From IMG/VR virus record IMGVR_UViG_2061766007_002127: a stretch of 64,000 nt of DNA, one strand, 5' to 3'. Source of the stretch: an uncultured virus (IMG/VR IMGVR_UViG_2061766007_002127) (Duplodnaviria > Heunggongvirae > Uroviricota > Caudoviricetes). Made by a program: the position numbers and the translations under genes. The notes under the pieces are model-generated. The model searched no databases. It was given only the letters and a program-made list of their open reading frames with translations, and had not been told where the DNA came from. Below are positions 35,313 to 63,773 of the stretch, in pieces. Every line of letters begins with the position of its first letter. The first letter of the stretch is position 1.

Positions 35313-37278
35313 TTACGCCTTCTTGAATTCAAGCGTTATCGCGCCGTCCTTCTCGTCCACGAGGATGTCGCCGCCGTTCTCGGAAAGCTCGCCGAACAGT
35401 ATCTCGTCTGCGACCTTCTCCGTGACCTCGCTGTTCACGATGCGCTCCACTGGGCGCCCACCAGCCTTCTCTGCGACTGCCTTGTCCACAATCCATTTCT
35501 TGGCGTTGTCGGACAGGCTGACCGTCACGTTCTTGCCGTCGAGGGCAGACTGGAGGTTTCGGATGTTCTTGTCCACAATCATCCCCATGACCTGCTCGTT
35601 CAGGTTGTTGAAGTAGAATACGTCCGTGAGGCGGTTTCGGAATTCGGGGCTGAACTTCTTCCTGTATGCGTCCTCGATTGTCTTCTGGGTGCGCTTCGTG
35701 TCGTCGGACTCGCTCTTCGTGAAGCCGAGCGTGCTGGACATCGCAGAGGCGTTGGCGTACCCGACGTTCGTGGTCATCAGGACGATGGCGTGCTTGAATG
35801 AAGCCTCGCGACCGTGGTTGTCGGTCAGCTTGCCCTCGTCCAGAACCTGCAGGAGCAGGTCGTACACGGACTTGTTAGCCTTCTCGATTTCATCCAGCAG
35901 GATGACCTGATGGGGGTTCTTGATGAGGGGCTCCGTCAGGGCGCCAGCCTGCTCGTAGCCGACGTAGCCAGCCGCAGAGCCGATGAGCTTGGACACGCTG
36001 TACTCCTCCTGGTACTCGGACATGTCGAGCTTCGTGAAGCCGATGCCGAGCTCCTTGGCGAGCGTCTTGGCGAGCTCGGTCTTGCCGACGCCAGTCGGTC
36101 CAAGCAGGAGCGCACTGAGGGGTCTCCCAGGATTCGCCAAGCCAGCCTTCTGCATGCGCACCTGACGAACAATCTTGTCCACTACCTCGTCCTGACCGAA
36201 CAGGTTGGTCTTGATTCGGTCGCCGAGTGTCTTGAGCTTCGTCTTGTCGTCGGTCTCGACTGAAATCTTCGGGATGTTCGCGATGGAGCAGACGACCTCC
36301 TCGACATCCTCCTTCGTGGCTACCTTGCCGTCCCTGATGCCAGAGTGGTACTTGGCGCCGATTTCGTCGATGATGTCGATTGCCTTGTCGGGGAAGAACT
36401 TGCCGACAATGTAGCGTGCGCTCAGGTCGACCGTGTACTGGAGAACCTCGTCGCTGTACTTGATTCCGTGGAACTCCTCGTACTTGGGGCGGAGACCCTG
36501 CAGAATCCTGAACGTCTCGTCCTTGGATGGCTCGGACAGGTCGATTTTCTTGAACCGACGGCACAGAGCCTTGTCCTTCTCGATTCTGTTCTTGTACTCG
36601 TCATATGTCGTCGCGCCGATGATTTTGAGCTGACCACGGCTCAGGTACGGCTTCAGGATGTTCGCAGAGTCCATGGAGCCTTCGCTTGAGCCAGCGCCGA
36701 CGATTGTATGCAGTTCGTCGATGAACATGATGACGTTCTCGTTGGACGAGGCTTCCTTGATGGTGTTTTCGAGGCGCTCCTCGAACTCGCCNNNNNNNNN
36801 NNNNNNNNNNNNNNNNNNNNNAGATGGTGCGACCAGCCAGCGATTTCGGAACTTCATCATTGGCGATTTTCAATGCAAGTCCTTCTACGATAGCTGTCTT
36901 ACCACAATTGTGGGAAATGAAATCGTTGGAAAAATAAGCATGTTCAACGCTATCCACTTCAATGTCATAAACATGCTTGTTTCCAATAGCTTCAATATTG
37001 TCAATCTTTTCAATTGNNNNNNNNNNNNNNNNNNNNNNNNNNNNNAATTCCATAGCCTGCTTCCATTCGCCTTCTTCCGTAAAAAGAAGATGGTCGAAGG
37101 AACAATCAATGTTTGCTTGCTCGGTTGAAATTCGATAAGAAGACCTTTCTCCTTTATCAACGACGATTTTTACTCGTTCCCAGCCATTTGGCGTTTCAAC
37201 TTCATATTCTCCAGGTTCATTGTTGAACAATTGGTAGAATTGTTCGATTGTCATTACTGATTCTTCATTTTTTTTCAT
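35313..37278 (-). CDS. clpA: ClpA C-terminal half, preceded by the C-part of a split intein (IntC 37278-36907)
   Basis: AGGAG RBS; intein blocks VETPNGW, DCSFDHLLFT, VYDIEV...YFSNDFISHN|CGKT; then Walker B FIDELHTIVGAG, IGATTYDEY, second AAA module GPTGVGKTELAK, LDMSEY, LLDEIEKA, FSPEFRNRL; no ClpB M-domain. Confidence 0.9.
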
Positions 37279-38493
37279 GTTTGATTCTCCTTTGATGAAT
37301 TGATTTATATCTGTTGAATTTAACCAAGCTTTTTTCAGTCAGTTTTATCTCTTCATTTTCGACCATTTTCTCAATGACAGAAAAATCCATGATTTCGACA
37401 TCGGTTATAATATGAACCATATTTTTCATTTTACAATACAGGATGGCAGCATTTTGTTTTCTTACGACCAAATCCAGTTGCTGAAGCTTCTCTGGCTTTA
37501 TCTCAACGACGATTTTATTGTCGATGAGGAAATCTGGACAATAAGACCTCTCGTGCCCGTCCTTGTCAAGATATTTTATCCTGAAATCTGGAGTATTGTC
37601 GAGGCTTTTCCATTCATGCCCTTCCTTCTCGATTACATTCACCATATACGACAGTTCCCTGAGGCTTCTGAAATACCAGCCCTTGTACCATCCTGAAATC
37701 CCGTTGCCAGAACCTTTCGGAGCTGGCTTCCCGTACATCGGATTGTTCTTTCCTTTGCTTCGCTGTGATTGCTTTTGTATCATTTTTTTATATCTTTCAT
37801 CTGCTTCTTCTTTTCCGTATTTTTCAAGCCAGACATCATATACGGAGCGACCATGCATTCCATTGTTTTTTCCATAATGCGAAGTTTTTTTAGCCAATTC
37901 TTGTTTCTGTTCTAGAGTCGAATNNNNNNNNNNNNNNNNNNNNNNNNNNNNNNNNNNNNATTTTTCATCTGCTTCTTCTTTTCCGTATTTTTCCTCATAT
38001 ACTTTTTTCATTGATTTTCCATAAAACCAGTTGTTTTTTCCAGAATTGCGTTCTGAAGCTTTTTGCCTCATTTCTTCAGTCCATACTCTATGCTGGATTT
38101 CTGACATNNNNNNNNNNNNNNNNNNNNNNNNNNNNNNNNNNNNTCTTTTTTCTTTCTGCTAAATTCTTGTTTTTCTTCCAATGTCATTTTCTCATATCGT
38201 TTTTTTCCAGATTTAGACAGTTTTTCTCTTATTTCAGGATGAGTTTTAAAATTTCTATTGGCAATGCAACTATGGCATATTTTATTTTTGCTTTTGCTAA
38301 AAAGAATTACATCTCCACATTCACAACATACATAACCTGTTTGATTGGGATTACAATCAAGGCATTCGATTTCTTTTTCTTTCGCCAAAAGAAGATGCTT
38401 ACTTGTGATTCTGATTTTTTTACCACATTTACAACAATTTNNNNNNNNNNNNNNNNNNNNNNNNNNNNNNNNNNNNNNNNNNNAATTGGTCAA
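37265..38493 (-). mobile_element. Free-standing homing-endonuclease-like gene between the clpA halves (CxxC repeats + NUMOD3-like + TnsA-like PD-(D/E)XK)
   Basis: AT-rich; CCKCGK, CLDC, CCECG, CHSC; repeated GKNN(W/G/P)(F/M)(Y/H)G; GWYFRSLRELSY...YCPDFLIDNKIVVEIKP. Start hidden near a gap. Confidence 0.75.
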
Positions 38494-38509
38494 TGTGGAA
38501 TTGGAAATG

Positions 38510-39178
38510 TCATGAAATTTTTCTGATTTTCACAAGTGTATTTGCTTCAATGCAACCAGCATCGCCAACAATTACGCAACAGTTTCCTTTCTTCCTAGCC
38601 AGAATCTGCGCCACGCGCTCGCACTCCGTCTCGCGACCGATGAGTGGGTCGATTTTGCCGTCTCGGGCGAGTTGCGTCAGGTCGGTGGCGTACTTGGACA
38701 GGAATTCCGTCCCGACTGCGTTGCCTGACTTGTCCCTGAAGTTCCTGACGTACTCCTGCGCGTCGTCCTCGAAGATGCCGTGCTTGGACAGGAAGTAGGC
38801 AGAAGCCTGCTCCTTGTCGCTGAACAGCATGATGAACACGCAAAGGCTGTCAGGCTCCATCGAGCGCATCGCGCCAGCCGACACGGCAGACTGGATGAGC
38901 TTCGTGTATGCGTTGGTTGGGTTGATGTTGCCGATGTCGTTCGCCTTCTCGACGTTCTCCTCGATGTATTCGGCGACCTCCTTCTTCAGGTCGGACACGG
39001 CTTTCGACTTGTTCTTGTCCGTCGTGAGCTTCTTGACGAGGTTCACGCACTTCTCGTCGTTCAGCAGGACGTAGAGCATCTGCTCTGGGACGAGATAGGC
39101 GTACTTGTGCTTCTCGGCGTAGTCCTGCACCTTGTTGACGAGTTTCTTGATTTCCTCCATTTCGTGGTTGTTCGGCAT
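38510..39178 (-). CDS. clpA: ClpA N-terminal half ending in a 14-aa N-intein (38554-38513)
   Basis: Clp N-domain, then KYATDLTQLARDGKIDPLIGRETE..RVAQILARKKGNCCVIVGDAG|CIEANTLVKIRKIS-TGA. Confidence 0.9.
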   Translation of the reverse strand: MPNNHEMEEIKKLVNKVQDYAEKHKYAYLVPEQMLYVLLNDEKCVNLVKKLTTDKNKSKAVSDLKKEVAEYIEENVEKANDIGNINPTNAYTKLIQSAVSAGAMRSMEPDSLCVFIMLFSDKEQASAYFLSKHGIFEDDAQEYVRNFRDKSGNAVGTEFLSKYATDLTQLARDGKIDPLIGRETECERVAQILARKKGNCCVIVGDAGCIEANTLVKIRKIS

Positions 39179-44126: not shown

Positions 44127-45093
44127 TTACGGATATAATATACCGTTAGAAAAAACTTGTGAAAAATTAGATTTCATTGGTTTCTCCTTTTCGACATTAT
44201 GGGGGACGGCAGATTCCCCATTCAAGAATGAGTCAAGTATGTTAATGGAAGCATTTGTATCTGCATCCAAAGCACATCCACATGAAACACACTCATACTT
44301 CTCTCCTTTTCTCGACTCCTTGTGGATTTCTCCACAATGAGAACATCTCTGACTTGTATAGCAGGCAGGAACAGTGGTCAAATAAGCACGGCTATTCTCA
44401 CACTTTTCCATCAGTCGCCTATGCAACAAGTCTATATTCCAATGAGCCAGCTTCTTGCGAAGCCATTTGCTCTTGCTCAATTTCTTTCCATTCTTTGTTA
44501 TATTCTTCAATTCCTCAATTACAATCAAATCATAATTCTCGATGCCAATCTGATTGATGCACCAACCGATGTAACATTTGATTTCTGCCAATGTCTGATT
44601 GTAATTATGACTTTTTTGAACTCTGTTTTCAAGTTTCTTTAAGAGATTCTTAAAATCAACTCCAATAAATCTTCCATCCGAAAGAGACATTAATTTGTTA
44701 ATGCCAATGTCAATTCCAAGACATTTTGTTCTCGAACTGATTTTGACAGGCTCTTCTTTTTCAAAGAATATATTCACAAAATAATTCTTATCGTTTTTAT
44801 ATAATGTTGCAGAAGAGCATTGTTTATATCCCTCTCGAATCATCTTATTATAATGCTTATGCTTTCTTGAAGGAAGAATCAAGCTAAATCTGTTACCAAA
44901 AACAGAACCAATCCTTATCCACAAGTCAAAGCTGTTGTTCCCGTCCTGAATCTTAATCAAGTCGGAGTTCAGTTCAATTGTAGAACCGTCGAAAACTGGC
45001 ATATTTACTCTATGTCTCAATTTTCTTCCAACAATCCAATCAGCATATTTCTTGTCTAAAATGCCAAAGATATTTCTGTTTTTCTTCTTGCAT
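44127..45093 (-). CDS. tnpB: TnpB RNA-guided endonuclease (5' end in gap)
   Basis: RuvC-I LGIDIGINK, RuvC-II IVIEEL, YTSQRCSHCG...YECVSCG zinc finger, RuvC-III DADTNASINIL; AT-rich. Confidence 0.9.
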
Positions 45094-49658: not shown

Positions 49659-52600
49659 CTACTCCTTATAGTCTGATACTATCTTGTCAGCTATTATACT
49701 CGCCTTCAGCATCCTTCTGACGATTTTCTCGACCCTAGCATCCTTCTCGCCATCCTTCTCGCCATCCTTCCCGACAACGGAATCCACAATCCAGTCGATG
49801 TCCTTGTCCTTCAAATGGCTCCTGAGGTACCTGAGCTCGTCGTCTGACAGCTTGAAGTACGCCCTCCTGAGTATCTCGAACTTGAGGCTCGGGTTCATCT
49901 TAATCATGTCCATGATGTCGTCGGATTCGAACTGCCTCATCCTCTCTGGACTCGACAGTATTCGGTTTATGTCCCTTTCGTCCCTTGTGTTGCAGCACAC
50001 GTAGAAAAGGACATCCTTGTCGAAGCTGTTGCTCGCCTGCGAAAGCGTCTCGTTCGAGAGGTTCCTCCTCAGGATGGAAAGCACGGCGCTCGGGCTTACG
50101 TTCTTGTTGCCGATGAGGCACTTGGCGATGCTCTTGTCCCTCTGCTTCGCCATCATGGAGAGAGCCTTCTGGTTTCTGACCTCGTCGCATTCCTCCCTCG
50201 TGGAAACATTGGCGCCGCTGACAATCCTCCTGCAAAGCCTTTGGACAAGCTTCTTCAGCCTCCCGTCGTCCGTCTCTGCGTTTATCGCATCGGCAAGTGG
50301 ATGGNNNNNNNNNNNNNNNNNNNNNNNNNNNNNNNNNNNNNNNNNNNNNNNNNNNNTCGGTGTATTTCTTCTTCATCTCCTCGTTCTTCACAAGGTCGAG
50401 CGCACGGCGAACGGATTTCTCCCCAGTGAACAGTTCAAGAGCCTTCTCGTAGACTGCCTCGCCAGCCTTCGGTGACTTGACTATCCTGTCCATTNNNNNN
50501 NNNNNNNNNNNNNNNNNNNNNNNNNNNNNNNNNNNNNNNNNNNNNNNNNNNNNNNNNNNNNNACTTCCTCACGAATCCGACGACGATTTCCTCCGTTATG
50601 CTCAGGCATGCGAAAATCGGCTGTATGCAGTAGTGGTCTCTTTTTATCTCCCTGTCGTGCTCCTGTATGATTCTGGCGATGTCCCCTGCCGTCATGTCCT
50701 TGTGACCGTTTATGTACTGCCTTAGCAAGTCCTTTTTGTCAAACGACTTGAATATCTTGCAAATCTCCTCGAAGTAGTCGAGCGTGCAGTTCTCGTTGTA
50801 CACGACTGCGAGCAGCACGCTCTCGAAATTGTGCTCTTGTTCGTCCTCGTAGTAGTCATCCTCTATATGGTCGTACTCGATGACCTTCTTCAGGTCGTCG
50901 ATGTTCCTCGCGCCCTTTGCGACCTGCTCGAGCTTCTCCCAGCTGTCGATGTAGTGCCTGCCACGGCTGCTGCGCATGTCCCTCATTTCGAGGATGCCGC
51001 TTCCAATCCACTTCGTGATGGCGTCCAAGTCGCAACCGTCCTCGAAATAGTCGTCCATGTCCATCCACTCGATAGCCTTCTCTGCGATTTCCTGCGTGCA
51101 GTTCGGATGCTTCAGCAACGGCTCGTAGAATTCCCTGTTCTCGTAGTCGCCGCTTATCGAATCAAGAGCCTTCTCAAGGTCTTTCGCAGTCGCAGTCTTC
51201 GATTCGACGATTTTGGACCAGTCGATGTCTGCATCCCCGTTCTCCTCGAGCTCCTCGACGATTTTCTTCGCAAGTGGCGTGATTTCGTTCAGCATGGCGT
51301 CGATGTCGTAGTCGTACATCCATTCGAGCACGCTCCGTATCTGCTCCTCGGTAGCGCTTGGCGAACGCAGCACATCCTCGCCGTTCGTCTCGTTCGCCAC
51401 GCACCATTCGAGGCACTTCGACATGCATCCAGCAGGGGCGTTGCACTCCCTTTCGGCATCGACTATCCTGTCTGCAATCTCCGTCTTCCTGTTCTTGTCC
51501 AATTTGTCGGAGCCGAAGATGTATCCGACAATCCTTGAAAGCCTAGCCGAATCGCCCTTCATGGAATTGACAAGCCCACTCATTGCGCTTGCCGTAGTCC
51601 TCATGCTGTATGCGTCGTTGCAGTATTCGACGACGTATTCCTCGTCATCCTTGAGTCCCCTCTTGAACTCGATTGCGTTGAATGTCTGGGACATTGAATG
51701 GGTGTTGCCGAACTTCCTGTGCATCCTGATGACAAGGTCGTTCGGGCACCTGTCAAGCATGGCGAGCGAAACGCATGCGCTGGAATTGTTGAAGTTGATT
51801 GCGTCTTCTGCGATTCTCCTGAATGCTTCATCCGTCGCTATGTCGGGGGATTTCGTGATTATTCCAACCGCGATTGACGTGTCGACCGTGCTGTTCTCGA
51901 TGACGTACTTCCTGACCATCCTGCTCTCTGCGTACTTGCCGATGCAGTTCGTCACGATTTTCTCGTCGTTCTTCTTCAGTATCTCAATCATCAGCCGATT
52001 GTTGTCGTCGGTGTCGGCTATCGACGAAGTGCTCTTGTTGAAGATGCCCATGAGCAACGTGTTCGCCTGGTTCGAATCGACTTTCGGCAGTCTCCTCACA
52101 ATCTCCAGCTTCAGGTCGATTGGAAGGTCTTTTCTCTTTTCTATGATGCTGAAGTCGTAGCCCATTTTCTCGCACAGCTTCGGAAGCATGTCCCTTGACA
52201 CGCTCACGATGAAGAATTCACGCGCATAGTGGTTCCTCATCGTGTCTGGATTGTCTATGACCTCGTCGAAGTACCTGTCTATCTCCTCCTGCGACGCGCC
52301 GAACCTGAGCGCCTTGCACTTCTGCCCGACAGTTTCGGCATTCTGCCACATGATGTCGGAAACCTCCTTGTCGCTGAAGAATGTCATGCAGTCGTACATC
52401 CTCTGCAACAAGTCCCTTTCCCTGATGTTCTTCCAGAGCCATTTCTCGATTTCCACAAGGATGCTTATGGAAGGCGCATATGCCTTGCACACGAACTCGA
52501 CGAGCCTTTCCTGTATCCTCCTGTTCCTTGTCAGCTTCGCAATCAACGGAAGAGCATTCGCGAACTGATGATTGTTGTCAATCATGTAAATCATCTTGTC

Positions 52601-54160: not shown

Positions 54161-55111
54161 TCAGTTCGAGCTCGGCAACGCGATGTCCGTGGATGTCAGA
54201 CCGTATTCGTTCGGCTCCGTCATCAGCACGCCGTCGAGGTCGTTGTAGGGCGAATTCGCGCCGTAGTCCTTGGCGTCCCTCAATACACTGATGTTCAGCA
54301 TTTCGCACACCTTGCCGATGGTCAGGTCGTCCTTCTCGGTCGTCCAGTCCCTCACGAAATAGAGCCTGTCCGAGCCGACGACCATCCCGAACAGAATCGG
54401 GTCCCTGCGCCACTCCTCTGCCTTCATCTGCCTGAGCGCAGAGCCTTTCGGGTCGTAGTGCATCACGCACCAGTTGTCGAACACGCACAGCGCGTCTGCC
54501 TTCTTCTTCGCCAGCAGCACGTCGTCTGGCACGAATTCTGGATAGTCGTTCCAGAAGTCGATGCGTATTCCACGGTCTGATGTCTTCAGCAACCTGATTG
54601 CGTCTTCCTCCGTCAGGTAGTGGAACAGACCGTTCTTCACGAGCACCACCTCGTTCAGGATGTTCCGATGCTCGCCCTCAAGCCTCTTCGCCAGCGCGAC
54701 CTGACCGTTCGCAAGCGTCCTGTCGACGATTCCCTTCAGCCTCTCTGCCATGTCGCCGATGTCGCCTGCGATGACGTTGCTCTCAATCATGCCCTTCGCC
54801 AGACCGAACGTGTCGGGAGGGGCGTCCGTCTTGGAGAGCAGTCTCCTCCACCATCCCGTTATCCTGTCCATCAGGGAGTCGCGTTTCCTCGCGTTGTCGG
54901 CGCTAAGCTCGTTGCTCCTGTAGAAGGACATGCCGTCTGCGCCAGACAGGAACTGCTCGACCGTCATCGTCCTGCCGTTCCTGAGCACGACCTTCCCGTT
55001 CACCAGATGCTTCGGCAACGTCGGGTCTGGCTTGAAGTTGCTGAACACCTTCAGGCGCAACCTGCCGTCGTCCTGAACGACCGACGGATGCTCGCTCCAC
55101 TTCACTGCCAT
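54161..55111 (-). CDS. Hypothetical phage protein
   Basis: GGGAGG RBS; VFDNWCVMHYDP...RDPILFG...RLYFVRDW. Confidence 0.6.
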   Translation of the reverse strand: MAVKWSEHPSVVQDDGRLRLKVFSNFKPDPTLPKHLVNGKVVLRNGRTMTVEQFLSGADGMSFYRSNELSADNARKRDSLMDRITGWWRRLLSKTDAPPDTFGLAKGMIESNVIAGDIGDMAERLKGIVDRTLANGQVALAKRLEGEHRNILNEVVLVKNGLFHYLTEEDAIRLLKTSDRGIRIDFWNDYPEFVPDDVLLAKKKADALCVFDNWCVMHYDPKGSALRQMKAEEWRRDPILFGMVVGSDRLYFVRDWTTEKDDLTIGKVCEMLNISVLRDAKDYGANSPYNDLDGVLMTEPNEYGLTSTDIALPSSN

Positions 55112-55112
55112 G

Positions 55113-55664
55113 TCACGCCTCCCTGTCGAACATCTGGACGACAATCGGAGCCATCGCCCCGATGTACGGAATCGCCCTGAGCGTGTTGAAGTCAATCCAC
55201 TCCATGGCTTCCTCGTCCGTGCAGTTGTTCTTGCTCACGTACCATTCGACCATCTTGTCATACGAGTAGACAGCCCTTCCGTCGGTCGTCACGCCGACAA
55301 GGGCCGTGTCATACGACTCGTCCTTCAGGATGATGATTTCTGGGTCGGTGTACCCGTTCGCTGCGAGTATCTTCTGCGCCGTCAGCTCCTCCTCGTCGGA
55401 CTTCCTCGTGATGGGTCTCGCGAGCAGTTCATCGTCTGCCTCGGCAGAAAGCCTCGAAGCAAGTTCGCTGAACCGTGCGTCGTCCATGGGCTTCCTTAGC
55501 GCAATCGACCTGCAGTTCATCAACACCTTCCCAGAGTCAACGTCGTCGTCGAGCATCTCCTGCAGGCATTTTATCTTCTTCTCCTCCATCGCCGTGAAGT
55601 CGGCGACTATGCGCCTTCTGTCCCTCACGGCATCCTCAAGCATCTTGCGTTCATTTTCTGTCAT
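55113..55664 (-). CDS. Hypothetical phage protein
   Basis: YDTALVGVT...AVYSYDKMV...EAMEWIDFNTLRAIPYIG. Confidence 0.6.
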   Translation of the reverse strand: MTENERKMLEDAVRDRRRIVADFTAMEEKKIKCLQEMLDDDVDSGKVLMNCRSIALRKPMDDARFSELASRLSAEADDELLARPITRKSDEEELTAQKILAANGYTDPEIIILKDESYDTALVGVTTDGRAVYSYDKMVEWYVSKNNCTDEEAMEWIDFNTLRAIPYIGAMAPIVVQMFDREA

Positions 55665-55677
55665 AATAAAATCATCC

Positions 55678-56522
55678 TTAGAACAGGTCCAGCTGGACAC
55701 CCTTCTCAATCCTCGCAATCGAGTAGTCGCACTGAGCCTTCGACAGCTCGACTCCGACGTACCTCATCTCCTTCTCTATCGCCACCACGCCAGTCGTCCC
55801 AGTGCCGTGGAACGGGTCGAGAACCGTCCACGAGCGCCTCTCGGAGTCTGGAACGTACATCCCGNNNNNNNNNNNNNNNNNNNNNNNNNNNNNNNNNNNN
55901 NNNNNNNNNNNNNNNNNNNNNNNNNNNNNNNNNNNNNNNNNNNNNNNNNNNNNNNNNNNNNNNNNNNNNNGGAAACAGGCTTTCCTGACCCTTCCTGCAG
56001 AACACGACGACTGGCTCGCATATCCTCGTCGACTTGTTCGGCGAGACGTTGTTCGGCAACGCGCACTTCTTCCTCCACACGAGCATGTCTGCNNNNNNNN
56101 NNTGTTGAAATCCTCCACGTTCGCAAGCACGACAGCCTGCGAAATCAGACCGTNNNNNNNNNNATGACCTCCGTCACAGCCTTGAACCAGTCGTAGTTCG
56201 TGTAGTCGGTGTGTGCGTCGTTACCGAGACCGAAGTTGTATAGAACGACACGGTTCTGCTTCAGGACCCTGTCCATCGCGTTGAACACGTCGACTGTCCA
56301 TCTGCAGTACTCTGCTGGTGGCATCCCCTCCGTGAACTCGTCGTAGCGCATGTTGTACTTGCGCTTCTGATTGGACTCCTTCGAGAACGTCTCGTTTCGG
56401 CATGTCCCGTAAGGGGGGGAGGTGATGACGATGTCCACGGAGCCTGCCTCCATTGAATCCATCGCCTCGATGCAGTCGCCGTTGTAAAGCGTGTATCCGT
56501 CCTTCTCGTAATATGCTTCCAT
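55678..56522 (-). CDS. Beta-class N4C/N6A DNA methyltransferase (gapped)
   Basis: GDCIEAM...IVITSPPY...VLDPFHGTGTT...GVEL; ends QLDLF. Confidence 0.8.
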
Positions 56523-56524
56523 TG

Positions 56525-57319
56525 TCAGAAAATCTCCATCTGCACGATATGGCTGGCAAGCCTCCTGGCTATCACTTCGCAGTACCTCTCCTCCTTCTCT
56601 ATCAGGACGCACTTCCTGTTCAGGTTCATGCACGCCTCGCCGAGCGAGCCGCTTCCAGCCGTGAAGTCGAGCACGGATTCGCCTTCGAGCGTGTACGTCC
56701 TCAGGAGGTATTCGAGCAGGTCGACGGGCTTCTGGGTCGGATGGAGTCTCTTCGCCCCGTATGGCTTCCTGAATTCCAGCACGGTTGTTGGGTACTTGTG
56801 GGTGTACGTCTTGTGAAGCGCCACCATGTTGCACTTGTTCAGGATGTCCGAGCAGACTGGCTTGCCGCCTGCCCTCGCGTCGCCGTTCTCGCGCTTCGTC
56901 ATGATGGGGTAGTAGACCATAGGATTGCTGGCTCCGTTGGCGCAACGCCCCTTGCTGAAGACGCATATGTCCTCGACGACGGACATCGGCTGAACCTTCG
57001 CCAATTGGAACGCGCCGCCAGACTCCTTCCTCCAGTTCCACCTGTATCTGAAGTCGTCAAGGTCGGAGCACACCAGCTTCGATGTGAACGGCTCGTTGCC
57101 GAATATGCACACGGCTCCGTTCCCCTTCACGTGCGACCAGACAACCCTCCACATGTCCGTGAACGGTATAACCTCGTCCCACTTGCAGGCAGTCTTGCCG
57201 TTCCCATACGGTGGGTCGACGATGATTGAATCGAACACGTCGTCAATCCCGTCCATCACCTCGACGGCGTCCCCCATGTACAATGTCACCAAATCATTCT
57301 GGAAATACGGCTTGCTCAT
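56525..57319 (-). CDS. Beta-class DNA methyltransferase
   Basis: IIVDPPYG...HPTQKPVDLL...VLDFTAGSGS; ends QMEIF. Confidence 0.9.
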   Translation of the reverse strand: MSKPYFQNDLVTLYMGDAVEVMDGIDDVFDSIIVDPPYGNGKTACKWDEVIPFTDMWRVVWSHVKGNGAVCIFGNEPFTSKLVCSDLDDFRYRWNWRKESGGAFQLAKVQPMSVVEDICVFSKGRCANGASNPMVYYPIMTKRENGDARAGGKPVCSDILNKCNMVALHKTYTHKYPTTVLEFRKPYGAKRLHPTQKPVDLLEYLLRTYTLEGESVLDFTAGSGSLGEACMNLNRKCVLIEKEERYCEVIARRLASHIVQMEIF

Positions 57320-57579
57320 CTGTTCGACCCGTCCCTGTTGCAGTCGGCGAGGAAATATTCGGCATAGCATCTGCATCTGCATGGGATTTCCTGCTTTGTC
57401 CATTCCTCCTCGGTACAGAGAGAATCAATGTATACTTCTATGCCAGCGTCCTCCGATATGCCAGCGATATGGCGCGTTCCAGCGTCCTCGCAGGCGTATA
57501 TGGTGGAAACTGCTCGGTCTCCAGGTCGCACAACCTTCATCGCCCTGCAGATTCCACAAATGTCCATTCTCCTATTCAT
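57316..57579 (-). CDS. Small Cys-rich hypothetical protein
   Basis: MNRRMDICGIC...CRCRCYAEY; resembles 59509-59766 and 60878-61270 (C..C...CP.(Y/L)AEH). Confidence 0.45.
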   Translation of the reverse strand: MNRRMDICGICRAMKVVRPGDRAVSTIYACEDAGTRHIAGISEDAGIEVYIDSLCTEEEWTKQEIPCRCRCYAEYFLADCNRDGSNR

Positions 57580-58358
57580 CAGAAAAGCTCCTGTTGCCTC
57601 GGCTCGCTCATGAACCTGTCGATTCTCTCGACAGCCTTCTTCCAGTATTCCTCGTTTGTCTCGAACCCGATGTAATGCCTGCTCTCCATCAGGCATGCTA
57701 TCGCAGTCGTTCCAGAGCCCATGCAGTTGTCGAGGACGGTGTCGCCCTCGTTTGTGTACGTGCGCACGAGCCATCTTATGAGCTCGACGGGCTTCTGCGT
57801 CGGATGCCACGTGTCTGCGTTGTGCTCCTTCTGGAAGGACAGGATGGAACGGGGGTGCTTTCTCCTGTCGTACTTGTCCGAGACCTCGGCGTTGGAATGC
57901 TCGCCGTAGCACTGGTTTCCATTCCTGTGCTGTCCACTTCCACGGGCGTGGCTAGGCTCCCCGTCAACGAACTGTGGGTTGTACGTCGGTTGCTCGCGGT
58001 AGAACACGGCGATGTCCTCGTGGCAACGCAAGGGCATTCTGCTGGCATTGAGGAATCCCGTCGTGCGTTGCTTGTCCCAGACGAGATTGTATCTCCACTC
58101 GTCGGGATTGCTCAGCATCAGCCTAGCCGTGAACATCCCCTGGCAGAACAGGACAATCGCCCCGTTCCTCTTCACGACTCGTCGGTACTGCCTCCACAGC
58201 TCGTCGAACGGAAGAAGCCTGTCCCACTGGGAGTTCGCGTTCCCCTTGTTCAGCACCTCATACGGGGGGTCGCATATGACTGCGTCGACAGACCCGTCGG
58301 GGATGTCCTTCATCCCCTCAAGGCAGTCGATGTTGTAGATGTTGTCAAGTTCAATCAT
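57579..58358 (-). CDS. Beta-class DNA methyltransferase
   Basis: DCLEGM...ICDPPY...HPTQKPVELI...VLDNCMGSGTT; ends QQELF. Confidence 0.92.
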   Translation of the reverse strand: MIELDNIYNIDCLEGMKDIPDGSVDAVICDPPYEVLNKGNANSQWDRLLPFDELWRQYRRVVKRNGAIVLFCQGMFTARLMLSNPDEWRYNLVWDKQRTTGFLNASRMPLRCHEDIAVFYREQPTYNPQFVDGEPSHARGSGQHRNGNQCYGEHSNAEVSDKYDRRKHPRSILSFQKEHNADTWHPTQKPVELIRWLVRTYTNEGDTVLDNCMGSGTTAIACLMESRHYIGFETNEEYWKKAVERIDRFMSEPRQQELF

Positions 58359-58529
58359 TTCAGTTCAGCAGAATGTACCGATGCTCCTCTCCGTCGACGT
58401 CGAATGACTTTTCGACATCAACGAAATCGAGAGTCTCCTCGCTTCCACCCTCGCCACTGTACTTGACGTCAAGGTCGCCATCATGCTCCTTGATGTCCTT
58501 CAGCTTCTGAATGAGTTCGGAGATTTTCA

Positions 58530-59120
58530 TCACATCACCTCGTCCACCACGCCGAAGTCCTTCGCCTCCTCGGCTGACAGCCAGAAGTCACGGTTGGTCT
58601 TCTCACGGAGTTCGTCCACTGTCTTGCCACAGTTCTCCGCGAGAATCGCAAGCAACGCCTCGTTCACCTTCTTCGTCTCCTCAAGTGACACAATCATGTC
58701 CTGAATGTTGCCCTGAGCGCCTGACGACGCCTGATGGAGCATGACACGGGTTCCCTTGAGGATGGTGCGATGCCCCTTCTCGCCACATGACGTGATGACG
58801 CTCGCCATAGAGGCGATGCTGCCGTGGGCGGTCACGTAGACGGGGCACTTCACGATGCGCATGGTGTCGATGATGGACATTCCTGCCGAGCAGTAGCCAC
58901 CAGGGGAGGAGATGTAGATGTTGATGGGGGCAGTCTCGTCCTCGCTCTGGAGGTACAGCAGTTCTGCCACGACGACGCTAGCCATGTGTGGCTCTATCTC
59001 GCCGTCAATCATGATGATTCTGTCCTTGAGCAGTCGGCTGTAGATGTCCTGATGGAGGGTGTTGCCGTCTGCGTCCCGTGTGATGACCACGGGGATTCCT
59101 GCGTTCTTGGTTTCGCTCAT
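58530..59120 (-). CDS. clpP: ATP-dependent Clp protease proteolytic subunit
   Basis: DIYSRLLKDRII...LLYLQSED...YISSPGG...IASMAS...VMLHQ...RDFWLSAEEAKDFGVVDEV; AAGGAG RBS. Confidence 0.95.
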   Translation of the reverse strand: MSETKNAGIPVVITRDADGNTLHQDIYSRLLKDRIIMIDGEIEPHMASVVVAELLYLQSEDETAPINIYISSPGGYCSAGMSIIDTMRIVKCPVYVTAHGSIASMASVITSCGEKGHRTILKGTRVMLHQASSGAQGNIQDMIVSLEETKKVNEALLAILAENCGKTVDELREKTNRDFWLSAEEAKDFGVVDEVM

Positions 59121-59484
59121 TTGAATTCTCCTTTGATTATGGTTTGGGGTTGAAATCCTCCACGTTCGCAAGCACGACAGCCTGCGAAATCAGACCGTAC
59201 AGGTCCTCTCCAGACACGGAGCTCCTGCACAGCCGACCGTCCTTCCAGTGCCAGAGCATCTCCACGTCGAACTCGTAGTCCGTCGCTGGCACCACGGTCA
59301 GCCTGATGTCCTCCACATCGGAAAGCCTGTCTCCGAACTGCGCCTGCATGATGGCGCGTTGCCTCCTGTCGGAGAAGCACTCCCCGTTCAGGAAGCGNNN
59401 NNNNNNNNNNNNNNNAGAAATTCCTCTTCAGGTACTCCAAGTCAAGCATGTGCATTGTTCCTCCTCTGGTTCAGTTGCATCATC

Positions 59485-59513
59485 AATATGCGCCGCATTC
59501 TGGGATTTTCAAG
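59485..59513 (-). promoter_or_regulatory. Class 1 promoter upstream of clpP/methyltransferase block
   Basis: CTTGAAAATCCCAGAATGCGGCGCATATT. Confidence 0.6.
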
Positions 59514-59766
59514 CCGTCTGGTCGGTTTTTCCCATGAAGCTCACGAGATGCTCTGCGTACATCGGGCACGTGTCCATGTCGCATTCAAGCCTCTCGTACT
59601 CCTCGATGGACGACGTGTACTTGTTGTCGTTACCACAGTGATACAGATGCCTGTCGCCGCATCCATACATGAGGAGCGTGAACATGCCGTAGTACTTGCA
59701 CTTCTCGCATATCCCGAAGTCCCTGAGCACCTCGGTGTCAGAACTTGTCTCTCCAGTCCTTTCCAT
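59509..59766 (-). CDS. Small Cys-rich hypothetical protein
   Basis: ICEKCKY...TCPMYAEH. Confidence 0.45.
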   Translation of the reverse strand: MERTGETSSDTEVLRDFGICEKCKYYGMFTLLMYGCGDRHLYHCGNDNKYTSSIEEYERLECDMDTCPMYAEHLVSFMGKTDQTA

Positions 59767-59784
59767 ATTTCTGCTCCATGTTTA

Positions 59785-59882
59785 TTTCAACTCACATCCA
59801 TGCAATCTGCAAGAATCTGGCATTGCATGGATGACATTCTCATGCTGAGAATTTGGAATCAATCCAGAAAATTGATTTCCAA
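59785..59882 (+). repeat. Dispersed structured repeat, copy 3 (67-bp core plus third hairpin)
   Basis: CATCCATGCAAT-15 nt-ATTGCATGGATG perfect 12-bp stem, then TTCTCA-TGC-TGAGAA. Confidence 0.85.
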
Positions 59883-59896
59883 CAAGAATAGTAAAA

Positions 59897-60226
59897 TCAG
59901 AATTTATCCCTCCAGTCGGCTCCATATGCGTTTTTCATATATTCCAGATACGGCTTCNNNNNNNNNNNNNNNNNNNNNNNNNNNNNNNNNNNNNNNNNNN
60001 NNNNNNNNNNNNNNNNNNNNTGACCTTGCTCGTCGATGAAATCAGGCTGGTAATAATATGTCTTGTTGCGGTACTTGTAGCTCCACTTCCTCGTGTTTCT
60101 CGTAAGCTCCATGCCGTGGTCGTGGAAGAACACGAGAAGCGCCAGCTCCCACGACGAGTCGTACCACTTCCCGTTCCACCATCCACGCTTCACGTCGTGG
60201 TAGTTCCTTGCAGTCAGCCTCGGCAT
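59897..60226 (-). CDS. Small TnsA-like PD-(D/E)XK endonuclease
   Basis: GWWNGKWYDSSWELA...YKYRNKTYYYQPDF. Confidence 0.65.
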   Translation of the reverse strand: MPRLTARNYHDVKRGWWNGKWYDSSWELALLVFFHDHGMELTRNTRKWSYKYRNKTYYYQPDFIDEQGXXXXXXXXXXXXXXXXXXXXXXKPYLEYMKNAYGADWRDKF

Positions 60227-60885
60227 TTCAATCTCCTTCCAATGCTGTCGTACCTGTCCCTCTGCGCCACGGATATGCTTCCACGACCGTCGAAACCGAT
60301 GTGGTACGTGTTCGAGTACGTGGCACGGTATCCCCTCGGCGACACTGCGTCCACCTTGAGCGACACGTCCATCGAATTGTCCGAATTGAATGTGGCATGC
60401 ACCCTGTGCCTCCTCACCTTCACGTCGTACTGCACATGGTACTCCCCCCATTCAAGATACCTGCGCACATTGCTCGCGGCATCGGCGAGGAGCATAGCCT
60501 GCTCCACACTGCCCTTGAACGCAAGACGGTATGACATGCCGTCGGGCGACACGTCCACCTTCTCTGCGCACTGCTCAAGGTCGCACACTGCGCTTGACAC
60601 CGAATGCCCGACTATGACGCCGTCGCAGAACCTCTGGAGAGCACGCGAGAATGCCTTCGTCTCCCTTTCCCTTATCTTCTTCCCGAGTCTCCTCCTCCAC
60701 TTCGCGCCGAACTGCCTCAGCACGTCCTCTGGACGGTACAATGCGTCGCAGGCGCGATAGTGGATGTCGTCCTCCAGCCCTAGGAACCCGTTGATTACAA
60801 GGAACGACAGGCATGCGTCCCTGTCCTCCCTCGGCAGTTTCCTCACGGCGTCGTACAATGTGTCGAGCGTCCTGTCGTCAACCAT
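60214..60885 (-). CDS. Hypothetical protein
   Basis: 223-aa ORF overlapping neighbours. Confidence 0.5.
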   Translation of the reverse strand: MVDDRTLDTLYDAVRKLPREDRDACLSFLVINGFLGLEDDIHYRACDALYRPEDVLRQFGAKWRRRLGKKIRERETKAFSRALQRFCDGVIVGHSVSSAVCDLEQCAEKVDVSPDGMSYRLAFKGSVEQAMLLADAASNVRRYLEWGEYHVQYDVKVRRHRVHATFNSDNSMDVSLKVDAVSPRGYRATYSNTYHIGFDGRGSISVAQRDRYDSIGRRLKCRG

Positions 60886-61270
60886 TCTTCCTCTCCTCTA
60901 TCAATGCGAGCCTCTTCTCCTCCCTTTCCCTCCACTCGGACACCTTCCTCTCGTGGTGCAGGTCGTACATCATGTGCTCTGCGAGGAACGGGCATGACGA
61001 CTGCCCCTCCTTCAGATGGATTTTCCACATGAAGTCCTCGGCGTTCCCCTCGTACATGCCTATCTCGTCGGAGCCCCGCACCCTGTCCCAGCCAGGAGGG
61101 GGGTTCTCAATGAACTCGGACGCATCCTCTATCTCGACGAAGTTGCACGTGTCGCCGAACCTCGTCGAGGAGTCGTTCATGGACAGGTACCACCTGCCCT
61201 CGGAATTCCTCAGGATGCAACGGGGGTTCGACCCCTTCCCACACTGGTGCCTGCAGAAGTTCAGGTTCAT
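60878..61270 (-). CDS. Cys-rich hypothetical protein
   Basis: MNLNFCRHQC...SCPFLAEH. Confidence 0.5.
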   Translation of the reverse strand: MNLNFCRHQCGKGSNPRCILRNSEGRWYLSMNDSSTRFGDTCNFVEIEDASEFIENPPPGWDRVRGSDEIGMYEGNAEDFMWKIHLKEGQSSCPFLAEHMMYDLHHERKVSEWREREEKRLALIEERKNG

Positions 61271-62648
61271 TTCTTCTCGTCCTCGTCGTCGTCCCATCCG
61301 AGGAGCTTCTTCATCTTGTCGAACTCCTTCTGCTGGTCCTTGTCGAACATCCCGTCGAGCCCGCCCATCTCGCTGGCAATCCTGTCGACAGCCTTCTGGT
61401 TGTCGTCGTGCTGTCCGTCGGTGAACTCGGAAGCCCTCTCGTCCTTGATGAAGTGCTGTACCTTGGAAGCCTCCAGCTTCATCGGCTCNNNNNNNNNNNN
61501 NNNNNNNNNNNGAGATGTTCCTGACGGCATGCACCTTCCTCATCGTGATGGTGATGTCGTCTATCAGGCACGGGAAGTTCCCGTTCGTGTCGAAGCCCTC
61601 GAAGCGTTCCACGCCATGCTCCATCGCGTGATGGACGTAGCCCTCGCCAGTAGGCACGTCGCCGCCGTCCTCGACAATCGANNNNNNNNNNNNNNNNNNN
61701 NNNNNNNNNNNNNNNNNNNNNNNNNNNNNNNNNNNNNNNNNNNNNNNNNNNNNNNNNNNNNNNNNNNNNNNNNNNNNNNNNNNNNNNNNNNNNNNNNNNN
61801 NNGCACCATACGCTCGTGTTGACGAAGTAGAACACGTTGTCCACGTCCTTGCTGTCATCGTTGCAATTGCCGCAATTGCATTTCGCCTCCTCGAGCTTGG
61901 ACTTCATTCCGTTGAGCTTCTCGATGAGGTCTTTCAGACCGTCCATGTCCAGACCTGGGATGGCAGACTGCCCATGAGCCTTCTCTGCCTCGTCGTCCTC
62001 GTCGGTGCTCCACATTCCGTCTGGCACACTGCCGTTTGGCTTGCGTGCCCCGATTGTCTGGAACGTCGTTCCGTCGGAGTGCATACCGTCTGGACGGTGG
62101 TGGAAGAAGTCCTCGATGTCCTTCATCATCTTGTTCGCGTCGAGATGGTCGTTCTCGTGAGCCTCCTCGACGCCGTCCTCGTACAGCTCGTCGGCATTCT
62201 CCTCGCTCCCGTATGCGCACCATTCCCTCTCGCACAGGAGATTGCCCTTCTCGGGGACGTATGCCTTCACGATTCCGTCCTCGACGTACAGGATGGCGTT
62301 CAGGGGAACCTCCCAGTCGCCGCCACAGTCGAACCCGAAGAACAATTCGCCCTTCGATGTCCTGTTAAGACCGTCGAACCCCTCTCCGTTCGTGTATTCG
62401 CCGCCAGCAGCGACGTTCTCCGTGTCGACGTTCACGTTGAAACGGTTGTCATATGTGATGACGCTGATGATGTCGTAGATGCTCTCGTTCGCGATTCGCT
62501 CCCAGTCGTCCCTGTCGACATCGTCGAACGTCTTGTAGTCGTCTGCGTAGTCGGAATTTGCTTCTGGGTCTCTCAGCGTCTCAAGGACGGCACGGAAGAA
62601 CTCCTTCTCGTCCGTGCAGATGTTTCTTTTCACTGTCTTCTTTCTCAT
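61267..62648 (-). CDS. Acidic hypothetical protein (gapped)
   Basis: AAGGAG RBS; VDTEN...CGGDWEVPLNAILY...AYVPEKGN. Confidence 0.55.
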
Positions 62649-62697
62649 TGGAAATCTCCTTTGTTGCTTGTGGAAAACTGAAAATTCTCTTTCACAT

Positions 62698-62726
62698 AAT
62701 ATGCCCCGTTTCCACGAAAAGTCAAG
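62698..62726 (-). promoter_or_regulatory. Class 1 promoter
   Basis: CTTGACTTTTCGTGGAAACGGGGCATATT. Confidence 0.6.
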
Positions 62727-62793
62727 CTCGGATTCCACATTTCGGTTATCGTCGCCACATTGTTTTACATTCCAGACACATGGAGGAGCAGAC

Positions 62794-63024
62794 ATGAACC
62801 AGTTCGGAACGGAAAACGCGAAGGCGATATGCCACAGGCTCGAAATGGAGGAGTCCATAATCAGGGACATGATGAACCAGCTTTCCCAGCTCAAGGCGAA
62901 CCAGCACTCCGAGTTCACGGAGTACGACAAGAGCACGCTGGAGTATTCAATGAAAAAGGCAGGCGAGGCAGTCGAGTGCCTGCACCTGTCCACGCTGAAC
63001 CTCAAGGGAATTCTGCCGAACTAG
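62794..63024 (+). CDS. Small helical protein, lone plus-strand gene
   Basis: GGAGGAG RBS; 76 aa. Confidence 0.5.
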   Translation: MNQFGTENAKAICHRLEMEESIIRDMMNQLSQLKANQHSEFTEYDKSTLEYSMKKAGEAVECLHLSTLNLKGILPN

Positions 63025-63773
63025 AACAGGTCCATCTGGCTGGACGGCTCGGCTTTCCTCCCGAGCGTGCCATTCAATCTGTCCACTATGATGCTGGCGT
63101 ACTTCGCGTTTATCTCGCATCCCACGCATCTGCGACCGAGCTCCCTCGACGCCAGCAATGTCGAGCCTATCCCAGCGAACGGCTCGAACACGAGGTCTCC
63201 AGCGTTCGACGAGTTGCGCACCAGCGTCTTCATGAGCTCCACTGGCTTCTCCGTGTCGTGCATGTTGGAGCCGTCCTCGTTCTTGAGCTTCTTGATTGGA
63301 ATGCTCAGGATGTCTGGGGTCGAGAAGTCGTTTATGTCCCTCGCAGAGCCTCTCCTGAACATCAGGATGTACTCGAAGCAGTTCATGTAGAACCTGCCGC
63401 AAATCTTGTTGCCCTTGTCCCATATCAGGGACTTTATGAATCTGAACCCAGCGTCGGTCGCGGCGTTCAGGCACTCCATCAGGTTGACGTGGTTGACCAT
63501 CACGTAGCAGTGCGTGCCGTCCTTCAGTATCCTGTGGAACTCTGGGAGGTAGTCGGAGAACTGGATGTCGTTGTCGTCGAATATCCTGCCGTTCCCAGCC
63601 TCCTTGCTTCTCCAGTATCCACCCATGGTGCCAGTCGTGCCCTTCGTCGTGACACGGTACGGGGGGTCGGTGCATATCAGGTCGACGGATTCGTCTGCCA
63701 TGCCTGCCATGACCTCCATCGCGCCTGCGTTGTAGAGCGTGATGCCGTCCCTGTCGTACACTGGCTCGCTCAT
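63021..63773 (-). CDS. Beta-class DNA methyltransferase
   Basis: LICTDPPY...HDTEKPVELM...VFEPFAGIGST...GCEIN; ends QMDLF. Confidence 0.9.
   Translation of the reverse strand: MSEPVYDRDGITLYNAGAMEVMAGMADESVDLICTDPPYRVTTKGTTGTMGGYWRSKEAGNGRIFDDNDIQFSDYLPEFHRILKDGTHCYVMVNHVNLMECLNAATDAGFRFIKSLIWDKGNKICGRFYMNCFEYILMFRRGSARDINDFSTPDILSIPIKKLKNEDGSNMHDTEKPVELMKTLVRNSSNAGDLVFEPFAGIGSTLLASRELGRRCVGCEINAKYASIIVDRLNGTLGRKAEPSSQMDLF

Follow-up and report, generated by a model that had tools for sequence, protein, structure and literature searches.

A 64-kb stretch of DNA from an uncultured virus (IMG/VR record IMGVR_UViG_2061766007_002127), referred to here as the window, contains four genes (MT1, MT2, MT3 and MT4) encoding DNA methyltransferases (MTs) of the PF01555 family, and each encoded protein terminates in a pentapeptide resembling the motif by which bacterial proteins bind the sliding clamp (beta clamp, DnaN). 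All four genes are located on the minus strand. MT1, which encodes a beta-class DNA methyltransferase, occupies positions 55678-56522 (stop codon, 55678-55680) and ends in QLDLF, encoded at 55681-55695 and followed by the stop. MT2 (56525-57403; stop codon, 56525-56527) encodes a protein of 292 amino acids (aa), counted from the first start codon, that ends in QMEIF (56528-56542). MT3 (57579-58358; stop codon, 57579-57581) and MT4 (63021-63773; stop codon, 63021-63023) encode proteins of 259 and 250 aa that end in QQELF (57582-57596) and QMDLF (63024-63038), respectively.

The PF01555 matches of MT2 (E = 5.2e-24, 85.9 bits, residues 58-279), MT3 (E = 3.3e-33, 115.9 bits, residues 24-243) and MT4 (E = 4.5e-30, 105.7 bits, residues 30-230), and that of the C-terminal piece of MT1 (E = 3.8e-08, 34.0 bits), all exceed the cut-off of 26.7 bits. 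A catalytic (D/S)PPY placed before the S-adenosylmethionine-binding FxGxG is the motif order that defines the beta class, and all four MTs contain DPPY or SPPY close to the N-terminus and G-S/T/I-G-T/S towards the C-terminus. Three runs of N (55865-55970, 56093-56102 and 56154-56163) cut across MT1, and its pieces lie in different frames. Its reading frame is open and intact for the last 61 codons, including the tail, and the integrity of the gene is vouched for in these codons alone. The N-terminal piece contains SPPY and begins with an ATG at 56522, 2 nt past the MT2 stop, and both pieces were matched in a tblastn search with the methyltransferase of a relative. An exact 50-nt direct repeat (56104-56153 and 59149-59198) was also observed here. 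Its first copy lies within MT1 between the two 10-N runs and reads as a plausible methyltransferase segment, and its second forms the 3' end of a 70-aa open reading frame (ORF) just upstream of a ClpP gene; the repeat may have been left by recombination of a methyltransferase cassette, or it may be an artefact of assembly or masking.

A census of all ORFs of at least 60 aa in the six frames of the window (n = 397) yielded exactly four with the strict ending Q..[LIM]F, all of them the PF01555 MTs, compared with 0.06 expected from amino-acid composition. The ending is thus found in 4/4 MTs and in 0/393 other ORFs (Fisher p = 9.8e-10), and a looser ending, Q..[LIMVF][FLIM]$, yields no additional ORF. 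The pattern Q[LIVMQ][SDEN][LMI]F, sought anywhere in the 397 ORFs, occurs four times, always at an MT C-terminus. No fifth DNA-modifying gene was detected in the window by tblastn with its own MTs and with the Dam, Mom and N6-like enzymes of a relative; the statement that all four carry the ending thus holds for the families that were tested. A first-pass annotation of this DNA had reported four divergent beta-class MTs with these endings and no other ORF ending in the same way. The endings were confirmed on the minus strand at the positions given above, their restriction to the MTs holds, and the class and the divergence are borne out by the PF01555 scores and by the mutual identities given below.

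Pairwise identity among the four MTs is only 24-37%, yet the Gln and Phe of the tails align exactly at the end. A functionless tail, produced by coincidence, by inheritance from a single ancestor or as a by-product of overlapping translation signals, would be in keeping with the membership of the four genes, as paralogues, in one Pfam family, with the identity of the MT1 and MT4 tails at 17/18 nt, and with the presence within the MT2 tail codons of a GGAG positioned 11 nt upstream of the start of MT1. This explanation is nevertheless very improbable. The composition-based expectation is far below the four endings seen, the tail has been retained while the catalytic domains diverged, the sequence contexts downstream of the four genes differ, identical peptides are expected to share codons where the third-position GC is near 0.8, and unrelated enzyme families carry the tail in the relatives described below. 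Overlap with a ribosome-binding site was rejected as the cause of tail conservation, as it occurs only at the MT2/MT1 junction and the tails are also found on those unrelated families.

According to the available text of a 2024 review of beta-clamp partners, the beta-clamp motif is a pentamer Q-phi-x-[L/M]-[F/L] or a variant Q-phi-x-[L/M]-x-[F/L], QLDLF is the strongest-binding peptide reported, and subsite I of the clamp pocket can be bound by LF alone (PMC11139829). MT1 (QLDLF) and MT4 (QMDLF) match this consensus fully, the tail of MT1 being the optimal peptide itself, and in all four MTs the motif forms the final five residues of the protein. The clients of PCNA carry a PIP-box of the consensus Q-x-x-[LIM]-x-x-[FY]-[FY]. 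This is not matched by the MT tails, which end at the fifth residue and lack the aromatic pair at positions 7-8. The clamp-binding reading put forward in the first-pass annotation agrees with all the indirect tests that were run; it is supported by this fit to Q-phi-x-[L/M]-[F/L], by the disorder predicted for the MT4 tail and by the tails of unrelated modifiers in a relative.

MT4 was the one MT modelled with AlphaFold2 (AF2). The model has a mean predicted local distance difference test score (pLDDT) of 84.8, its last helix comprises residues 223-233, and residues 239-250 have a pLDDT below 50 and no secondary structure; the tail is therefore predicted to be part of a disordered segment beyond the last helix. 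An alignment of 57 MT4 homologues out of 120 (39 of the 40 best and 17 later ones chosen for their tails, and thus a biased set) displays strong conservation of the catalytic domain as far as an invariant Arg in the last helix. Beyond this Arg lie 3-26 residues of poor conservation, and most sequences then end in L-F or L-W. This architecture is that of a tethered short linear motif and not of a fold element. An intramolecular function of the tail, such as a part in dimerisation or in autoinhibition of the methyltransferase fold, could be proposed from the hydrophobic nature of the final residues, and beta-class MTs often dimerise. Such a role is distinctly unlikely for a tail that is predicted to be disordered and detached from the fold, that follows a tether of such variable length, that is missing from many close homologues and that recurs on four unrelated folds, including those of Mom and Dam.

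The unrelated folds were identified in an IMG/VR contig of 329 kb (G002) that has direct terminal repeats and an estimated completeness of 100%. This contig matches positions 5-59 kb of the window at 65-88% nucleotide identity, with order and orientation consistent throughout. Judged from this syntenic relative and from its content of genes matching PHROG families, the window is part of a large uncultured phage. The strict ending occurs in 8/1,570 ORFs of at least 60 aa in G002, two of the eight being 74-aa ORFs of unknown standing, and in 6 of the 228 non-overlapping ORFs of at least 150 aa. The six include two PF01555 MTs (tails QIALF and QMELF), a Mom-family DNA modification protein (PF25680; QTYLF), a D12 Dam-type methyltransferase (PF02086; QVTLF) and an N6_Mtase-like protein (phrog_21201; QLELF). 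The sixth is a 230-aa protein ending in QVFLF that gave no hidden Markov model (HMM) match; its language-model neighbours are viral PF02384 methylases, and it is a probable N6 methylase as a lead only. In G002, a further PF01555 enzyme has the ending QVNLFD and the MT1 orthologue the ending TEAFLF. Nine DNA modifiers were tallied among the 228 ORFs, two of them on weak or partial PF01555 matches and one on the PF02384 lead, and the strict ending is found in 6/9 of these modifiers versus 0/219 other ORFs (Fisher p = 4.6e-10). A 255-kb sister contig (G001) contains four PF01555 genes with the tails QVNLFD, TEAFLF, QMEIF and QLALF.

By these comparisons, the tail is a mark of DNA modifiers whose folds are unrelated, which rules out simple inheritance inside a single family and argues against an intramolecular role. 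Two additional observations concern the modifiers of G002. Its MT1 orthologue (50058-50912) is split by one in-frame TGA and is intact (283 aa) in G001. A 358-aa protein without HMM match (321650-322726, minus strand) contains QMDLF at residues 15-19, near its N-terminus, and its language-model neighbours include acyltransferase-like clusters, in which PF09924/PF13480 are present in a minority of members; this protein is possibly a further modifier docked on the clamp, in this case through an N-terminal motif.

Among the PHROG matches of the window are two proteins resembling ClpP, a fragment resembling ClpX and a large ATP-dependent protease (phrog_4871), and several proteases are also found in G002. 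Hydrophobic C-termini can serve as degrons, and the methyltransferase CcrM is a substrate of Lon. The tail might on these grounds be a C-terminal degradation or adaptor tag for phage Clp/Lon-type proteases that limits the level or the timing of the MTs. This explanation is considered improbable. The tails carry Gln at position -5 and match the clamp motif, whereas ClpX tags are of the Ala-Ala type; a general degron would not predict an ending that is limited to DNA modifiers among the G002 ORFs of at least 150 aa; and the relatives encode a clamp with an apparently conserved LF pocket.

The candidate partner clamp was detected in G002 and G001, each of which encodes one DnaN-like protein of 379-380 aa. 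It matches the central DnaN domain PF02767 (E ~1e-13) and beta clamps of the PDB (E = 6e-13); PF02768 and PF00712, the other DnaN domains, gave no match in G001 or G002. A collection of 5.8 billion proteins contains 36 relatives of this protein, nearly all of them unnamed. Its AF2 model has a pLDDT of 86.9 and was aligned by Foldseek to E. coli beta-clamp structures with template-modelling scores of 0.80-0.85. The clamp gene of G002 is located 1.7 kb from the gene of the QVNLFD methyltransferase. Other replication genes of this phage encode a DNA_pol3_delta2 clamp loader, DnaB, primase, gyrase, RecA and NAD-ligase (LigA), together with a DNA polymerase III (Pol III) alpha subunit that is split by inteins and homing elements. 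On this gene content, G002 possesses its own replisome of bacterial type.

The pocket residues listed in the available text of the 2024 review (PMC11139829) were mapped by hhalign of the G002 clamp to E. coli DnaN (probability 92.6%). Eight positions of subsite I appear to be kept or conservatively replaced at ~20% overall identity; the pairs (E. coli/G002) are L155/L165, T172/T182, H175/H185, R176/R186, L177/I187, P242/P255, R246/K260 and V247/M261. The C-terminal strand with V360 to R365 lies outside the hhalign alignment and is similar by eye. A piece of the G002 Pol III alpha contains QSFLW shortly past its helix-hairpin-helix (HhH) domain. The internal clamp motif of E. coli Pol III alpha sits at this same position after the HhH domain.

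Docking of the tail on a different shared partner, such as a packaging or capsid-targeting factor, a single-stranded DNA-binding protein or RNA polymerase, would also account for the comparative data, which show a portable peptide on unrelated modifiers without naming its partner; some phages, moreover, package MTs. It appears unlikely in view of the close match of the tails to the beta-clamp consensus with QLDLF as its optimum, and of the relatives, which encode a beta clamp and a Pol III alpha with a similar peptide at the expected place. No alternative candidate partner emerged from the analysis.

Two side observations were made on the replication genes of G002. A 264-aa ORF (166797-167591, plus strand) between the primase and helicase genes encodes an acidic stretch followed by a terminal EFLF and may represent an additional client of the clamp within the replication module. 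At 76-96 kb and elsewhere, inteins or LAGLIDADG elements are inserted in Pol III alpha, NrdD and other genes.

Endings of the same type have been found among the homologues of the MTs. The 120 matches of MT4 include 10 with the strict ending and 33 ending in [LIM][FW], among them 15 of the 16 closest; the corresponding numbers are 8 and 29 for the 120 matches of MT2, and 5 and 12 for 150 representatives of MT3 at 50% identity, all three denominators being rough. The strict ending was absent from 36 clamp homologues that served as control. In many more homologue tails, the motif is situated a few residues before the end. An independent example is provided by MT835576.1, a GenBank scaffold of an uncultured gut phage, which contains three tandem PF01555 genes with the tails QLSLF, QDSLF and QKDMF, the last followed by seven residues. 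Four more distant large phages that share the protease gene (G003-G006) contain no PF01555 gene and neither extend nor test the pattern.

The surroundings of the MT genes were also characterized. The cluster formed by MT1-MT3, together with two neighbouring genes of which one is transposase-like (phrog_10081), is located between a ClpP gene and a gene encoding 1216 aa (54161-58358). In G002, the stretches matching these two flanking genes are less than 1 kb apart (177-179 kb), and the MT1 orthologue is found elsewhere, near 50 kb; MT1-MT3 thus appear to sit in a variable island. A search for relatives of a 344-aa gene neighbouring the MTs found none. Genuine genes in the window are marked by a third-position GC of ~0.75-0.85, and the majority are on the minus strand. 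Further PHROG matches include a ParB-like protein, tRNA-His guanylyltransferase, a DNA polymerase exonuclease subunit and transposase-like genes. One transposase-like ORF (44127-45020; phrog_506/12300) has a third-position GC of 0.38, compared with ~0.8 in its neighbours, and is probably a recently acquired insertion element. The gene of the phrog_4871 protease (35313-39178) is split into an N-terminal part (38510-39178) and a C-terminal part (35313-36860), and the region between (36601-38107) holds ORFs of lower GC with endonuclease or recombinase matches. The G002 gene is split likewise, its halves being separated by an endonuclease gene, and the split looks like the work of a mobile intron or homing element. 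The window also contains 4,480 N spread over 69 runs. Blocks of low GC were dropped as a feature, as they mostly coincide with long N runs. At least eight ORFs with DUF7487 and an ArdA antirestriction gene are present in G002.

Taken together, the tails probably dock DNA modifiers on a beta clamp and thereby couple modification to replication. This conclusion is drawn because the motif is restricted to MTs in the window, fits the consensus, is kept despite divergence of the enzymes and lies on a stretch predicted to be disordered; because the homologue sets are enriched in it, unrelated modifiers carry it in G002 and the relatives encode a beta clamp; and because subsite I of that clamp appears to be kept, the G002 Pol III alpha contains QSFLW and MT835576.1 supplies an independent example. 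We infer physical binding to a DnaN-type clamp, action at the replication fork and an anti-restriction benefit.

Several observations weigh against this reading. The evidence for clamp docking is indirect. Two of the four tails depart from the consensus, that of MT2 (QMEIF) by Ile at position 4 instead of Leu/Met and that of MT3 (QQELF) by Gln at position 2 instead of an aliphatic residue. No clamp homologue was found within the 64-kb window, and the partner for this phage is deduced from relatives at 65-88% nucleotide identity; an exact 42-mer of the window was absent from the viral_contigs and metagenome_contigs collections. In the G002 clamp, N320 and Y323 of subsite II align to K332 and D335, and R152 aligns to N162, in an alignment that is uncertain at ~20% identity. 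The majority of homologues carry no tail, and the homologue sets from which the counts were taken are metagenomic and include fragments. The motif ending was also absent from the MTs of cultured phages (0/8), a set drawn from Brochothrix phage BtpYZU02, Bacillus phage LBC2, Klebsiella phage RCIP0013, Fusobacterium phage phiKSUM (four enzymes) and Ochrobactrum phage OC. The tail is, by these comparisons, a facultative addition, because most homologues are without it, and it is lineage-specific and not universal, because MT835576.1 has tails and none of the eight cultured-phage enzymes does. A kept subsite I with a changed subsite II would, tentatively, fit a near-constant LF and a more variable Gln.

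In the mechanism proposed for clamp docking, each MT would consist of a compact catalytic domain and a short flexible tether whose last residues are Q-x-x-[L/I]-F and whose carboxylate is free. The final Leu/Ile-Phe pair would insert into subsite I, a hydrophobic site situated between domains II and III of a clamp of the DnaN type. This clamp would most likely be encoded elsewhere in the phage genome, as in the relatives, although the clamp of the host may be used too. Clamps loaded during replication would concentrate the MTs on newly made phage DNA, and recognition sites would be modified soon after synthesis, before restriction enzymes or packaging act. A more specific version of this mechanism, possible and on balance doubtful, is that the divergent DnaN of the phage, with its Leu-Phe pocket and altered Gln subsite, is a private clamp tool-belt on which any acquired modifier joins replication by means of an x-x-x-L-F tail. 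The modifiers served would be beta-, alpha- and gamma-class MTs or Mom. The tail would then be a portable address that puts methyltransferase cassettes gained by horizontal transfer to immediate use at the fork, and it may separate the phage modifiers from the clamp clients of the host.

Clamp-binding peptides and clamp-associated MTs are each known from other systems. The clients of the beta-clamp motif reviewed in the available text of PMC11139829 are Pol II, Pol III alpha, Pol IV, Pol V, MutS, MutL, Hda and the delta subunit, and the stem "methyl" is absent from that text. As in the MTs, these bacterial clients carry a short pentapeptide, often at the extreme C-terminus on a flexible segment, and dock in the DnaN pocket (PMC11139829, same text). 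They are polymerases and repair or initiation factors, whereas the carriers in this phage are DNA-modifying enzymes, and the likely clamp would be a divergent phage-encoded DnaN with an apparently altered subsite II, unlike the DnaN of the bacterial clients.

Clamp-coupled DNA methylation is textbook biology in animals, where it is represented by DNMT1 and PCNA. This maintenance methyltransferase is tethered to the replication clamp and new DNA is promptly methylated, as described in the available text of two sources (PMC9690074; bioRxiv 10.1101/354589); it is the sole methyltransferase case mentioned in that of a 2022 clamp review (PMC9690074). The two systems are alike in placing a methyltransferase on a clamp, which in the phage is proposed from sequence. 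DNMT1 contains a PCNA-binding domain within a large multidomain protein, whereas the phage MTs are small, single-domain enzymes with a C-terminal pentapeptide of bacterial type, and the two arrangements share no common descent. Plasmid single-strand-specific MTs, described in a 2020 paper, are likewise enzymes of mobile elements that work with the replication machinery. In the available text of that paper, they co-purify with Pol I, another host protein is suggested as intermediary and the clamp is named solely as something that Pol I binds; the link, unlike that proposed here, is made through Pol I and single-stranded DNA, with no clamp-binding peptide described. Phage factors with short clamp-binding peptides include T4 gp33 and gp55, which bind gp45, and MuC of phage Mu, which binds the host beta clamp (PMC9690074; bioRxiv 10.1101/2025.01.04.631326; PMC12867686; available text of each). 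Their peptides also tie a DNA transaction to replication; the transaction coupled to the clamp in the available accounts is late transcription and not DNA modification.

Full-text literature searches, which left most subscription journals outside their coverage, returned no description of a methyltransferase from prokaryotes or phages that carries a clamp-binding motif, in agreement with the belief expressed in the first-pass annotation that such a system is uncharacterised in phages. The comparisons support, without proving, the view that phage DNA modifiers form a new group of clients that use a docking motif already known. The clamp-docking idea is directly testable with peptides and purified clamp. 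If it is true, it would help to account for the ability of phages with rapid replication to maintain modification at many recognition sites of each new genome, the bacterial clamp would gain a new class of clients, and the tail would be a simple sequence mark for finding replication-coupled DNA modifiers in metagenomes.

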